From a virus (lineage: Duplodnaviria; Caudoviricetes), in IMG/VR virus record IMGVR_UViG_3300020045_015663, positions 1 through 25,598 of that record: DNA of 25,598 nucleotides; one strand, 5' to 3'. The notes under the pieces are model-generated. The model worked only from the letters and a program-made list of their open reading frames with translations, had not been told where the DNA came from and made no database searches. Both the position numbers and the translations under genes were made by a program. Within the stretch, counting starts at the first letter, position 1; every line of letters begins with the position of its first letter. Shown piece by piece: positions 3,879 to 14,472 of the stretch.

Positions 3879-4304
3879 ATGGCAACTAATTTTATAAAGG
3901 GTAAAAATTTACGCCTTTCGTTTGGCGATAAACTTTTATGGCATGCCCAGGAGTGTACGCTGAGTATATCGGCAAAAAACGAGTCGGTTAGTACAAAAGA
4001 CACCCAGGGCGATGAAATAGTAATGGATGGGTATAACTATACCTTAAGTACAAACGGCCTTGCAGCGGCATTGCCTGATGGTAATACTACGCATATAACC
4101 GGCGATACGTTAACCGATGCGGTATTAAACAATACGCTTATAAACTGGGAGTTTGGTACCGGTGTAGTAGGGTCGCGCATGTATAGCGGTACTGCATACG
4201 TTACACAGGCCGATATTTCGGCATCTAACGGCAGTGCGGTAACGGGAAGTTTCTCTTTTACCGGTAGTGGCGATATAACCGCGGTGGCTGTTCCTGAAGA
4301 TTGA
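3879..4304 (+). CDS. Major tail tube protein (TP901-1-like); possible UGA readthrough to 4349
   Basis: 141 aa; IKGKNLRL, CTLSIS..STKD, YSGTAYVT and GSFSFTGSG motifs. In-frame extension NRGVYGLQYGPQYG follows the TGA. Confidence 0.9.
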   Translation: MATNFIKGKNLRLSFGDKLLWHAQECTLSISAKNESVSTKDTQGDEIVMDGYNYTLSTNGLAAALPDGNTTHITGDTLTDAVLNNTLINWEFGTGVVGSRMYSGTAYVTQADISASNGSAVTGSFSFTGSGDITAVAVPED

Positions 4305-4376
4305 AATCGGGGCGTATATGGCCTACAATACGGGCCGCAATACGGCTAAAACAGTAACCTAATACAATATAAAACT

Positions 4377-5540
4377 ATGGCTTTATCTTTTTCAAACCTG
4401 CGCACGTTATGGGGTACAATATTCAGGGATGATGCGCCCGCGGGTGCGCTGCAGCCATCGGTAGATTTAGAGACCCGAACCGATTTGCTGGATTCTATCG
4501 AACAGGCAATAGACCAGGCTGTGGCTTCAATTCCTGTGGGGCCTTCGGGTGCGCAGGGTGTGCAGGGTATACAGGGCGTGCCCGGTCCTGTGGGGCCTGC
4601 CGGGTTAGAGTGGCGTGGTACCTGGGCTGCGGCAACAAGTTATGCACTTGATGATGCTGTGGGGTATAACGGCGCTTCGTACTTCTGTATCCTGGCGCGC
4701 ACCGGTAACGTAGCAAACGCAAACCCTGTGTCAGATACTACCCATTGGGCGTTACTGGCGGCGCAAGGCGCAACCGGCCCTGCCGGGGCACAAGGTGCGG
4801 CGGGTGCGCAGGGTCCGGTAGGGCCGCAGGGTATACAAGGCCCGGCGGGTGTTGTTGCTTCGTTAACATCTGCTTCTGTTGTAAAAGCCACCCCGGCTGC
4901 AGAGCTTATTTACGGAATAAATGAGATTTCCGGTGGTAGTGGTAGTGTTAAATTGCCTTCCGGTGCAGGGCGCATTATTGGCAGTTCTATTTATGTTTCT
5001 GCGGCTTTTGCTTCAACGCTTGTGTATAGTTATGCGGGCGATGCTAAAGTTAGGTATGCGGGTGGTGTAAATGGTGCGATAACAAGTTTTGTAGTGTTAA
5101 ACGTTGGTAATTATTACCGGTTTACGTATTTAGGTGATGATTATTGGCTGGCAGAAAAAACAGTACAGTCGTACAGGGAATTCAGGAAAAGGTTAACACA
5201 GTCCGGAACTTCAAACCCTACTTTCGTGGCTTCGCATATTGATGAGCTTACAAATTCGGTTGTTGGAGTGAGTGATGTAAATTACCGAAATATAGTTTTA
5301 TTTAGAAATGATGTTGGCAATTATTCTATAATAATCCGTACAAATCCATCGGTTACAACAAATCTTATTACTACCGAGATAGGATTTTCAGACGCTAAGG
5401 CTCGCGTTTTATCTTCAAATATCGGTTCGGACGGCGTGTATAATTTCCTTGAATATATTTTTGAAACAAGGGACGGTGCCGGTGTGCTTTCGGATAATCA
5501 GTTGAATTTGACAAATGTGTATATAAAAATTTACGCTTAA
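4377..5540 (+). CDS. Collagen-repeat fibre protein with CBM5/12-like module
   Basis: Two Gly-X-Y runs flank WRGTWAAATSYALDDAVGYNGASYFC...HWALL; beta-rich C-terminal domain. Confidence 0.8.
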   Translation: MALSFSNLRTLWGTIFRDDAPAGALQPSVDLETRTDLLDSIEQAIDQAVASIPVGPSGAQGVQGIQGVPGPVGPAGLEWRGTWAAATSYALDDAVGYNGASYFCILARTGNVANANPVSDTTHWALLAAQGATGPAGAQGAAGAQGPVGPQGIQGPAGVVASLTSASVVKATPAAELIYGINEISGGSGSVKLPSGAGRIIGSSIYVSAAFASTLVYSYAGDAKVRYAGGVNGAITSFVVLNVGNYYRFTYLGDDYWLAEKTVQSYREFRKRLTQSGTSNPTFVASHIDELTNSVVGVSDVNYRNIVLFRNDVGNYSIIIRTNPSVTTNLITTEIGFSDAKARVLSSNIGSDGVYNFLEYIFETRDGAGVLSDNQLNLTNVYIKIYA

Positions 5541-5548
5541 TATAAATT

Positions 5549-5575
5549 AACCCCTGCCTTAACCGGCGGGGGTTT
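5549..5575 (+). terminator. Hairpin after fibre gene (terminator/attenuator-like)
   Basis: AACCCCTGCC-TTAACC-GGCGGGGGTT, 10-bp stem with a short U tract. Confidence 0.6.
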
Positions 5576-5589
5576 AAAACCCCTTTAAA

Positions 5590-5940
5590 ATGAAAATTAC
5601 AATAAAAAATATCACGCTTACTTTAGTTTTTAATTATGCTTTTATGCTGCGCCTTACCGAAAAATGGGGGCTTAAAGGCCCGGGTGAAGTGGCAACGGTG
5701 TTAATGGATGGCTCGCGTGATGAGTTTGAAAAATATATCGATTTTGTTCAGGCTGCGTCTGAAGATCAGGGTGCGGTTGCGAAAATTGACCGCAATGATA
5801 TCGGTACTTTTATAATGCGATTAAAGCATAGAAATGATATTATTTCGGCATTTAATGATGTGGTTATGCCTCCTGAAGATATGCCAAAGGCAGACACCCA
5901 GGGAAAGCAAACCCCGGCGATACCGCTGGAGACGAAATAA
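5590..5940 (+). CDS. Tail assembly chaperone (lambda gpG-like)
   Basis: 116 aa between tail tube and tape measure genes; slippery G GGA AAG at 5901-5907. Confidence 0.85.
   Translation: MKITIKNITLTLVFNYAFMLRLTEKWGLKGPGEVATVLMDGSRDEFEKYIDFVQAASEDQGAVAKIDRNDIGTFIMRLKHRNDIISAFNDVVMPPEDMPKADTQGKQTPAIPLETK
5901..5907 (+). other. Programmed -1 frameshift slippery site GGGAAAG
   Basis: Correct X XXY YYZ phase; the -1 frame is open from 5901 to the stop at 6353. Confidence 0.9.
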
Positions 5941-6353
5941 CCGTACCCTTAACCTGGGATGATTACGAGGCTTTGGCCTGTGGCGAAATGGGTTTAACAA
6001 TCGACTATTTTTACAGCCTTACCCCGCGCCGGTTCTTTAATATTTACAAAGGGTGGCGCAAAAGGCAGCACGAAATATATAAAACCGAAAGCGAACGCAT
6101 GCGTCTCCTTATGTGGGCCGCGCTGGCACCGCACCAGGCAAAAGGCGCAAAGTTAACCCCGGAACAATTACTAACGTTCCCGTGGGAAAAACCTCTGCCG
6201 GATGCCTTGCCCGAATTATCGCCGGAACAATTAACGGCCGCCGCGATTGAAATGCGGGATTTCTGGGAAAAGACCGATGCCAAACTGGCAAAGGTAAAAC
6301 AACCCCCGCAAAAACTCACCCTGTCGCAACTACTGCGCGACAAAACCCCTTAA
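5907..6353 (+). CDS. gpT-like frameshift extension of the tail chaperone (gpGT fusion about 254 aa)
   Basis: The -1 frame reads ANPGDTAGDEITVPLTWDDYEALACGEMGLTIDYFYSLTPRRF...; F..LTP..F motif typical of gpT-like parts; the ORF-track start is only TTG 5973. Confidence 0.85.
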   Translation, partial: ANPGDTAGDEITVPLTWDDYEALACGEMGLTIDYFYSLTPRRFFNIYKGWRKRQHEIYKTESERMRLLMWAALAPHQAKGAKLTPEQLLTFPWEKPLPDALPELSPEQLTAAAIEMRDFWEKTDAKLAKVKQPPQKLTLSQLLRDKTP

Positions 6354-12158: not shown

Positions 12159-12304
12159 TGGCAAACAATAATAAAGTACACGTTATAGGTTTTCGCCCAC
12201 GGCGGTATGAGCGGCCGCAGCCTTCAGGGCAAAATTTTAAAGCTTCAACAACATTGGTAAAGGCAAGTACAACGCTGTATAAGGCAAGTAAAACAGTAAT
12301 ATAA
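12158..12304 (+). CDS. 48-aa triple-repeat protein (not in ORF track), putative fibre-docking adaptor
   Basis: MANNNKVHVIGFRPRRYERPQPSGQNFKASTTLVKASTTLYKASKTVI; TAATG stop/start overlaps at both ends fill the gap exactly. Confidence 0.85.
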   Translation: MANNNKVHVIGFRPRRYERPQPSGQNFKASTTLVKASTTLYKASKTVI

Positions 12305-12666
12305 TGGCACAGGAAATAATAAATATCGGGGTTGTTGATAATGATCCGGATGCTGATGATATCAGGGAGGCGTTTCGTAAATCAAAATCGAATTTTACAG
12401 AGTTGTACAACGCTACGCAAAATGTAAACCGTATTAATGTGTACCTCATGAACCCCGCGCGCGATGCTGAATATTACTTTGAGAGCGCTGCCACGGTAAG
12501 CGCGGTAATGCTTCGGCACGGCATTTCGGCGTTAACGGTTAGTATAGGCGGGGCGGCGTTTATCCCGGCGGTGGCTGGGGCTTACATTCCTGCAAATACC
12601 GATGTTATCTGGCGCGTAACGTATTCGCCGGGCAGTGTTAAAGCATTATTTTATATAAAACTATAA
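12304..12666 (+). CDS. Short fibre/connector protein with T4 gp9/gp10-like N-terminus
   Basis: MAQEIINIGVVDNDPDADDIREAFRKSKSNFTELY resembles the INIG..ND..GD.LR.AF.K.N.NF.ELY motif. Confidence 0.7.
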   Translation: MAQEIINIGVVDNDPDADDIREAFRKSKSNFTELYNATQNVNRINVYLMNPARDAEYYFESAATVSAVMLRHGISALTVSIGGAAFIPAVAGAYIPANTDVIWRVTYSPGSVKALFYIKL

Positions 12667-12669
12667 GCG

Positions 12670-12942
12670 ATGGTAGAAATTGAGAACGGTATTTTTTGGG
12701 ATACGGCCCTGGGGCTGTATGAACAAACTGAAGAAGTTAGAAATTTGCTTTCGGAATATTTAAAAAACCCGCCTGTAGAGGTGGTGTATGAAGATTGCGA
12801 TAGTGATAATAAGCGCGTTTTGTATAAAGTGTACGCTTTTGGGGATGCGTTTTTTAAGGTAGAATATATTTACGTGGGTGCGCCGGACAGTAATGAATGG
12901 GCAGGTATAAAAGATAAAATATATACAGTTTATGGCACATAA
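12670..12942 (+). CDS. Hypothetical acidic protein in tail fibre region
   Basis: 90-aa ORF tightly packed in the operon. Confidence 0.6.
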   Translation: MVEIENGIFWDTALGLYEQTEEVRNLLSEYLKNPPVEVVYEDCDSDNKRVLYKVYAFGDAFFKVEYIYVGAPDSNEWAGIKDKIYTVYGT

Positions 12943-14257
12943 TTTTAGGTTAACAGGGGCGGTATATGTCAGTAAGGCCGGTAATGATAGTAATGCAGGT
13001 ACAAGCCCCGATGCTCCAAAAGCCACGATAGGCGGGGCAATAACGGCAAATGTTGCCGGGCTTATTGTTGTGGGTACGGGTTCGTATAACGAAGTGTTTA
13101 CAATTCCTTCCGGTAGTAATATTACAGGTATCGTGGCCGATGGTACTGTGCTTTTTTATGGCACCGGCAGTATTGTTTTTGGTAAAGCGGTAACGGTAAC
13201 GGGGTTTATTTTTGATGGGTATACATCGGTGGCGGGAACGGCATCAAGTGTTACGTACACATCGTGTGTTTTTAAAAACATAACGGCTTTTCCTTCCAGG
13301 AGCGGCGGCGTTGAAGTTGGTAATTTTAGCCAGTGTATTTTTTTAAGGTGTACCTGGGCTTTTTTAACTACGCCAATTACAAATTATGCGCTTTTCAATA
13401 GTCTTTTTATTGATTGTTATGTTAGAAACGTTTCTAAAATGACGGGGTGTTATGTAAATGAGTTTACAGATCTTAAAGTGTATGACGCGATTAGTAGCAG
13501 TAATTTTAATAACAACAATATTGAGGGCCGCATTTCTATGGGTACCAATGTTTACCAAAACCTGGCCGCTCACAAAGTATCGTACCCTTCGTTAAACGTC
13601 ACCAGTTTTAATTTGCCGCCGCATTTTAATAATGCTGCAAAGCTTGATTTTACGCTGCAATTTGACAGCCCGCACATTATTCCTGATGCGGCCTTTAATA
13701 TTGGCGGTACGCAATATGCAAAATCAATAACGGTTTTAGATGCGGCGTGCCTTCCTGTTAATGGTGCGGTTTTGGAAAATCTCCAGTACGACGGTGTAGA
13801 TCTGGTGGTATCGCCGGGCTTCACTTCCGGGGTTATAACCACCGCCCCTATTTTGGTGTCTCCTACGCCGGTAGAGTTGAAATTTTTTAAAATAAACGGT
13901 TTGCTGGCATTTAACAAATCTACAGCCGGGGGCAGTGCCACAAATATAAACGTGCCCGATGCTACGGTTTTTGCCGGCAGCGATGCCAGCGGAATGGGTA
14001 ACCCTGACAGGCTTGTGCAGGAATTTAGATGGACGGCGTCTGATGTTGCCCCGGCGATAAATGTAGATGCCGATTACCCAAACGGTGGTTTACTGGCGGC
14101 GGGCGTTTTTGGTAAATTCTTAACCGGCGATATTGCGCCATCTGTAGATAATACAGGCAAAACAAACGGTGTGCAGGGTTTTAATCAGGCGGCCGTTACT
14201 GTGGTTACTGTAACCTATGTGCAGCTGCGTTTAACTATAACTAACGGATATTTATAA
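12932..14257 (+). CDS. Putative tailspike / right-handed beta-helix receptor-binding protein
   Basis: VYVSKAGNDSNAGTSPDAPKATI...IVVGTGSYNE cap motif of pectin-lyase-like folds; repeated xCxF / N-rich rungs. Confidence 0.65.
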   Translation: MAHNFRLTGAVYVSKAGNDSNAGTSPDAPKATIGGAITANVAGLIVVGTGSYNEVFTIPSGSNITGIVADGTVLFYGTGSIVFGKAVTVTGFIFDGYTSVAGTASSVTYTSCVFKNITAFPSRSGGVEVGNFSQCIFLRCTWAFLTTPITNYALFNSLFIDCYVRNVSKMTGCYVNEFTDLKVYDAISSSNFNNNNIEGRISMGTNVYQNLAAHKVSYPSLNVTSFNLPPHFNNAAKLDFTLQFDSPHIIPDAAFNIGGTQYAKSITVLDAACLPVNGAVLENLQYDGVDLVVSPGFTSGVITTAPILVSPTPVELKFFKINGLLAFNKSTAGGSATNINVPDATVFAGSDASGMGNPDRLVQEFRWTASDVAPAINVDADYPNGGLLAAGVFGKFLTGDIAPSVDNTGKTNGVQGFNQAAVTVVTVTYVQLRLTITNGYL

Positions 14258-14472
14258 TGGCAGCCATAAACCAGGAACCTACAGGGCTTTTTGGCGTGTC
14301 GTTCGGCATCCGGAAAGTGCAGAACATAGAGGTGCAGCGCGGGGTAAAAGGGGTGTCGTTCGGTATCGACCGGAGGCAGCCCATCGAGGCGCAAAAGGGG
14401 GTAAAAGGCGTGTCTTTTGGTATAGAATACAAAGGGCAGGTAATAATAACAACGCATTATGAAAGAACTTAA
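14257..14472 (+). CDS. 71-aa protein with three repeats of 19-aa period (GVKGVSFGI core)
   Basis: TAATG-coupled to the beta-helix gene; 57-nt period; repeat cores differ at synonymous positions. Confidence 0.8.
   Translation: MAAINQEPTGLFGVSFGIRKVQNIEVQRGVKGVSFGIDRRQPIEAQKGVKGVSFGIEYKGQVIITTHYERT

Follow-up and report, generated by a model that had tools for sequence, protein, structure and literature searches.

A conserved in-frame UGA extension of siphophage tail tube genes as a putative readthrough tag for accessory fibres

In the virus record IMGVR_UViG_3300020045_015663, the gene for the major tail protein ends at a TGA codon behind which the same reading frame stays open over a short aromatic peptide, directly ahead of a gene for a collagen-containing fibre. 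This arrangement raises the question of whether the stretch is a true coding extension of the tube, made by stop-codon readthrough, and what such a peptide might be for. The window analysed here is the whole 25.6-kb record (25,598 nucleotides) and represents the late region of a siphophage, with genes for the capsid, head-tail connectors, tube, chaperones, tape measure, tip proteins, holin and endolysin. Judging from distant cultured relatives, the host is probably Flavobacterium or a relative of it. The features around the tube gene are collected in Table 1.

Table 1. Features of the window at and behind the tube gene (window positions).
Feature	Position	Strand	Remarks
Major tail (tube) protein, 141 aa	3879–4304	+	PHROG 1407, E 9e-18; PF06199; siphovirus tube fold
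Putative leaky UGA, next base A	4302–4304	+	TGA in 30/30 motif-bearing tubes
In-frame extension NRGVYGLQYGPQYG followed by TAA; Tyr-type V-[FY]xxx[FY]xxx[FY]-x tag without a start codon	4305–4349	+	
13-pair RNA hairpin within the extension; candidate readthrough stimulator, Tyr type only	4310–4347	+	
Fibre N-terminal adaptor, ~45 aa; predicted tag partner	4377–4520	+	
Accessory fibre, 387 aa: adaptor, collagen repeats, CBM5/12-like stretch, two cargo domains	4377–5540	+	
Tail assembly chaperone G	5590–5940	+	Adjoins the tube gene directly in cassette-less L003/L006, L001 and L004
Tape measure protein, 854 aa	6369–8933	+	Sets the number of tube subunits, estimated at ~190–200

The product of the gene in question is a siphovirus tail tube, as the original prediction had assumed, since both profile matches, the tube fold and the gene position between the tail terminator and the chaperone and tape measure genes all agree. 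Its structural model (pLDDT 82) resembles the monocin, 80alpha and Sf11 tubes (Foldseek TM ~0.7) and also matches the SPP1 and lambda tubes in structure comparison; when the read-through form is modelled, residues 1–140 adopt the standard tube fold and are followed by a low-confidence tail. The gene end likewise reads as originally described: GAT (4299–4301) precedes the TGA, the peptide follows in frame up to a TAA at 4347–4349, the read-through product would be 156 aa long, and the GC content of the extension (24/42 nt) contrasts with that of the 27-nt spacer (6/27). TGA is indeed uncommon at gene ends here (3 of 21 late genes; 7 of 35 plus-strand genes), and the tube gene is the sole one of the seven TGA-ending genes among these 35 in which the TGA stands clear of the following start. 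Of 449 free-ending genes in related loci, 12 close with TGA. The same TGA is carried by two related loci, L002 (91% tube identity) and L116 (50%), which excludes a sequencing error. A sense-codon version, which would have pointed to an error or a private nonsense mutation, occurs in none of 135 tubes. An acidic residue before the stop was considered as a specific feature and rejected, with D present in 9 of 30 TGA tubes and 21 of 104 others.

Among the 135 distinct homologous tubes, the association between stop codon and peptide is without exception: all 30 TGA ends are followed, always in frame 0, by a V-[FY]xxx[FY]xxx[FY]-x-stop peptide, no such peptide follows any of the 105 TAA or TAG ends, and neither TGA without the motif nor the motif without TGA occurs. 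The first set comprised the best 80 of 83 viral loci by tube alignment together with the window and L001, giving 69 distinct ends (one loose regular-expression match, in L010, is non-terminal, and the L073 locus lacks a stop); here the terminal motif and an adaptor gene follow 5/5 TGA ends and 0/64 TAA or TAG ends. The distant TGA ends continue as ASVFTSEFTSEFS and TSVFSSIFSSEFA, in the same V-aromatic-xxx-aromatic-xxx-aromatic-x register, so that V-Y-GLQ-Y-GPQ-Y-G of the window aligns with V-F-TSE-F-TSE-F-S of the Phe type, and the gene inserted behind them begins MTNVELKSAIDTAITSET. A pattern scan for TGA followed by FxxxFxxEF (120 of ~230 matches listed; 96 distinct, 56 of them without an internal stop) placed 16 of the 56 behind a tube among the matches listed, including a third tube subfamily, and all 16 are then followed by an adaptor gene; the other 40 stop-free matches have no tube upstream and were set aside as chance. 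For the subfamily resembling Flavobacterium phage 11b, a protein search was used whose query came from TGA-type tubes and was blind to the stop (best 80 of 168; 65 distinct ends, one locus without a stop). The motif and an inserted adaptor gene accompany 24/24 TGA ends in this set, 0/41 TAA ends have either, and none is discordant, with the weight of the 41 TAA ends limited by the fact that most are TAATG overlaps with the chaperone start and cannot be TGA. The bare DNA pattern is not rare (1 match against 1.4 expected) and is unremarkable in itself; its location is non-random, since such a peptide follows 0 of 696 other gene ends in related loci.

Wider searches added few tubes. A GTDB scan yielded one, L001, with TAA and no cassette, and a family search of 401 genomes yielded two more, both ending in TAA. 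No match to the window tube or the L301 tube was found by tblastn among 50,697 phage records, and metagenome scans gave a tube in 0 of 101 candidate stretches, with a single chance match to the motif pattern.

The TGA, the peptide and the accessory gene thus occur as a cassette between the tube and chaperone genes, and, judged from gene order and the tube tree, this cassette has been gained or lost repeatedly rather than invented 30 times. The 30 TGA cases are not independent because the TGA travels with the cassette. Sister pairs differ by the cassette only (window vs L006, L028/L034 vs L035, L418 vs L416), and its state changes 17 times on a quick maximum-likelihood tube tree built from few columns, with at least 7 changes forced by well-supported branches. 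The DNA of the Tyr and Phe cassettes is unrelated, yet both begin at TGA. The comparison of homologues therefore bears out the central expectation of the original prediction, namely a conserved TGA and a conserved peptide with synonymous variation, here present only beside a downstream accessory gene. Its emphasis on a YG repeat has to be revised, however: conservation lies in the aromatic register V-[FY]xxx[FY]xxx[FY] and not in YG itself, most relatives using Phe.

Three Tyr-type loci were found, namely the window, L002 and L116, of which two are close (91%). L002 has TGA, SRGVYGPQYGPQYG and TAA, followed by a different fibre that has its first 42 residues in common with the window fibre; L116, found by a pattern scan, has TGA, TQGVYGSQYGPQYG and TAA, followed by a fibre with the same adaptor. 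Between the peptide codons of the window and L116 there are 7 synonymous and 3 non-synonymous changes, and when sites are counted, 9 of 10.3 synonymous (pS) but 4 of 31.7 non-synonymous sites (pN) have changed (Fisher p 1.4e-5), which shows purifying selection on the extension peptide. The spacer 3' of the TAA has diverged between the two. Among 32 viral matches to YGxQYGxQYG, just L002 and L116 lie behind a tube, and the others are low-complexity repeats. The nearest cassette-less relatives, L003/L006 (tube identity 61%), have the flanking intergenic DNA and the VPED ending in common with the window; they end in TAA, without peptide or fibre, and lead from the tube straight to the chaperone. 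L116 additionally carries a strong 14-bp hairpin directly behind the TAA of its peptide.

The adaptor is the only long N-terminal stretch kept among the three Tyr-type fibres, with 50–62% identity among the window, L002 and L116 despite the different body of the L002 fibre. In the window fibre, the CBM5/12-like stretch falls below the Pfam cut-off, and the cargo domains (~164–260 and ~264–341) match 19 of 26 Phe-type accessory proteins at E <0.05 (best 8e-8), so that the common cargo domains tie the Tyr and Phe flavours together. In Phe-type cassettes, the next gene begins with an adaptor of the ITNET/NETxxxANTA type, modelled as a helix-loop-helix (pLDDT 88), and the flavour of the tag tracks the adaptor, Tyr occurring with the DLETRTDLLD type and Phe with the ITNET type. 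The proposed link between the two adaptor types draws on position, motif register and common cargo domains, the sequence similarity itself being faint (hhalign E 0.083 and 0.033, probability <2%). Neither adaptor matched the PDB by sequence or fold, and all ESM Atlas matches were <0.9.

Outside tube genes, the Phe motif is an ordinary protein C-terminus. Distinct matches lie within open frames in 27 of 32 cases for FxxEF and in 95 of 96 for FDxTF (120 listed of an estimated ~630 stretches in the collection). Among 109 constitutive-motif genes with a near downstream ORF, 38 stand directly before an adaptor-type gene (profile E <0.01; many near copies), whereas this holds for none of 227 further genes from these loci; this adjacency is a tendency and not a rule, as the other 71 have no detectable adaptor next to them. 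An example is Cellulophaga phage phi18:1, where the head-tail joining protein gp51, a virion part according to its record, has the C-terminus ...GTFDNTFDITFN and is directly followed by gp52, an adaptor-plus-collagen protein of the same build as the window fibre. FxxxFxxxF ends are also seen on myovirus baseplate and other genes (L121, L123, L138, L161 and several of L157–L273) where the gene that follows encodes no adaptor-bearing fibre; partners of the tag can therefore be encoded elsewhere.

A cultured case of the cassette is provided by Flavobacterium phage 11b (NC_006356.2), whose tube gene gp36 ends TGA ACT AGC GTT TTT... and reads on as TSVFSDTFALTFE-TAA, with the adaptor-bearing gp37 directly behind it; both gene products are annotated as hypothetical. 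In its relative Cellulophaga phage phi10:1, the tube ends TAA TAA, and neither the peptide nor an adaptor gene is present. In the 11b record, the name 'major tail protein' is given to gp44 (L403, 14338–14850), while gp36, which bears the cassette, is of the PHROG 1407 type and occupies the canonical position, is called 'hypothetical'; two tube-like places are found in 11b and two in phi10:1.

UGA followed by A is a leaky context in bacteria, and among 20 distinct cassette heads the base at +4 is always a purine (17 A, 3 G). An in-frame ATG, GTG or TTG occurs in one of the 20 heads and not in the window. In the Phe type, codons 1–3 (RCT ARC GTT) have a pS of 0 among the 13-codon heads, compared with a pS of 0.46 and a pN of 0.19 over codons 4–13; the bases from +4 to +12 show no synonymous change among these heads, save one GTC in L439, and could reflect either a recoding context or a recent common origin. 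The hairpin of the window (−16.1 kcal/mol, z −1.7) is equalled by 10 of 200 shuffles, and synonymous recodings are at least as stable as the native form in 8/300 cases for the window, 5/300 for L002 and 67/300 for L116. Among the three Tyr loci, pairing is kept in 38 of 39 cells; six changes affect one side of a pair and none affects both. The hairpin noted originally thus folds as described and fits all three Tyr-type loci, but no hairpin-like structure was found in the Phe type and no RNA signal is common to both flavours, so it is not a general signal.

Taken together, it is quite likely that UGA readthrough makes a few 156-aa tube subunits whose C-terminal tag docks the next-encoded fibre along the tail. 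Near-cognate decoding of the UGA by a minority of ribosomes, to which the missing start codon and the lack of any sense-codon version point, would yield the extended subunit. By analogy with the C-terminal extensions of the SPP1 and lambda tubes, such subunits would be built into the tube with the tag outside; the extension comprises 13–14 residues and is predicted to be disordered on the monomer (pLDDT <50 at 148–156). The three aromatic residues may then bind the N-terminal adaptor of the fibre, which is probably trimeric because collagen implies a trimer. Tail length follows from the tape measure at 0.145–0.15 nm per residue, giving an estimated ~124–128 nm for the window phage. With a tube ring spacing of 3.85 nm, as given in PMC8718954, the tail would hold the number of subunits entered in Table 1, and an assumed readthrough of 1–5% would translate into ~2–10 anchors per tail, few enough to avoid the crowding expected from a tag on every subunit. 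A more far-reaching proposal, which seems slightly favoured on balance, is that the leaky UGA serves as a dial: a few percent of ~200 subunits would become sockets with a portable three-aromatic tag for interchangeable adhesion fibres, the Tyr and Phe tags and their adaptors would form two orthogonal pairs, and the termination efficiency of the host would set the number of fibres per particle.

Readthrough could be real and the tag still serve another end, binding the tube itself like a C-arm, binding another virion part, or marking a special position such as the tail end or neck. The C-arms of SPP1 and 80alpha do fold onto the neighbouring ring according to PMC8718954, and constitutive-motif genes often stand without a detectable adjoining adaptor gene (71/109). 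This reading is nevertheless unlikely, given that the accessory gene comes and goes with the tag, with no exception in 65 ends, and that tag flavour tracks adaptor type. It is rather improbable, too, that the 42 nt act within the cassette as DNA or RNA, serving the fibre gene as a promoter or as a signal for processing or translation, with an incidental open frame. Changes sit on synonymous sites, no head has a frame-breaking change or internal stop, and elsewhere the peptide motif forms the genuine C-terminus of proteins, although the Tyr-type hairpin survives in L116 and the Phe-type bases from +4 to +12 are nearly fixed. A sigma-70-like TTGAAA-17-TACAAT (10 of 12) is present at 4301–4329, but such a pair is found in 1/20 cassette heads, as is the Bacteroidota-type TAnnTTTG box.

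The existence of constitutive versions on other virion genes might suggest that the peptide is the silenced remnant of a constitutive tag behind a nonsense codon, and the in-frame GTG of L116 that it is a separately translated mini-peptide. Both are very improbable: no sense-codon version is found in 135 tubes, the peptide is under purifying selection beside intact accessory genes, a remnant would not be confined to the rarest stop codon, and an in-frame start codon occurs in 1 of 20 heads. Scarcely credible are a reassigned TGA, which would place the tag on every subunit, and readthrough of both stops into a tube-fibre fusion. TGA also closes six other genes of the window, where the frames that follow are all short or overlapping, and the window has no tRNA; the fibre ATG shares the frame of the tube gene in the window and in both other Tyr-type loci, L002 and L116, yet the accessory gene is out of frame in 13 of 20 heads and a stop lies in the spacer of 4 more.

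Several known systems resemble parts of the proposed fibre-docking mechanism. In SPP1 (gp17.1/gp17.1*) and the Listeria phages A118, A500 and PSA, a minority of tube subunits carries a recoded C-terminal extension, as described in PMC8718954 and PMC5009743. The likeness to the putative window form lies in a minor extended tube made by recoding at the gene end; those phages, however, use a frameshift and a folded FN3/Ig domain (ratio 3:1 in SPP1), whereas the extension here is in frame behind UGA, 13–14 residues long, and apparently a socket for a separate, swappable fibre. The Qbeta coat/A1 pair, where leaky termination at the UGA of the most abundant structural gene yields a small share of extended protein (PMC8880383), is similar in that a conserved stop precedes a conserved in-frame coding extension without its own start codon, but it concerns the capsid of an ssRNA phage and a long folded extension instead of the tube of a dsDNA siphophage and a short linear tag. 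In the gp51/gp52 pair of phi18:1, a tag in this aromatic register likewise lies just ahead of a fibre gene that encodes a short conserved N-terminal adaptor and collagen. In such Bacteroidota FxxxFxxxF pairs, the tag is constitutive and present on all copies of a neck or baseplate protein that is itself low in copy number, in contrast to the window with its stop codon before the tag, ~200-copy protein, Tyr residues and divergent adaptor. In lambda gpV-type tubes, the tube surface is likewise decorated C-terminally, but by an Ig-like extension fused in frame on every subunit without recoding. The crAss001 fibres were considered as a model and rejected, as the part of PMC10172136 consulted describes pocket and hub binding and no aromatic tag. 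No Pfam family or paper was found for the combination of an FxxxFxxxF tag with a helix-loop-helix fibre N-terminus, and a literature search, with subscription journals largely outside its coverage, gave no report of this motif or of readthrough in the tube of a dsDNA phage.

If true, the proposed mechanism would be a natural case, among tailed DNA phages, of programmed stop-codon readthrough, with phage 11b as a cultured and sequenced example, and its product would be missed by construction in annotation pipelines and standard proteomic databases. It would constitute a third route, beside frameshifting and gene duplication, to the low-occupancy decoration of a high-copy tail protein. The common unexplained FxxxFxxxF ends of Bacteroidota phage proteins would gain a testable function as fibre-docking tags, and a 14-residue tag with a 45-residue adaptor would be a compact tool for phage-tail display.

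Other forms of tube decoration and recoding are visible in the same loci. Same-family tubes with permanently fused C-terminal Ig/FN3-like extensions (227–319 aa) occur in L043, L063–L068, L072 and L483, and L015 (1047–2157) has tandem tube genes, one plain (140 aa) and one with an ~80-aa Ig-like extension (220 aa), which, going by its gene content, is a case of tube decoration by gene duplication instead of recoding. In the window, a lambda-type slippery heptamer, GGGAAAG (5901–5907), lies close to the end of the chaperone gene, and the −1 frame is open from there through a 126-aa ORF (5973–6353) upstream of the tape measure, corresponding to the usual G/GT frameshift; comparable slippery sites are visible in L001, L003 and L004. 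A GC-rich inverted repeat (5550–5573) separates the fibre and chaperone genes, and in the cassette-less L001, L003, L004 and L007 a hairpin with a T run occupies the equivalent place directly behind the tube gene. Towards the tail tip, a small gene (12304–12666) with a T4 gp9/gp10-like N-terminus (PHROG 677, weak PF07880) represents a second kind of fibre adaptor, located before a 441-aa probable receptor-binding protein (12932–14257), which is followed by a 71-aa ORF (14257–14472) consisting of three GVSFG(I) repeats.
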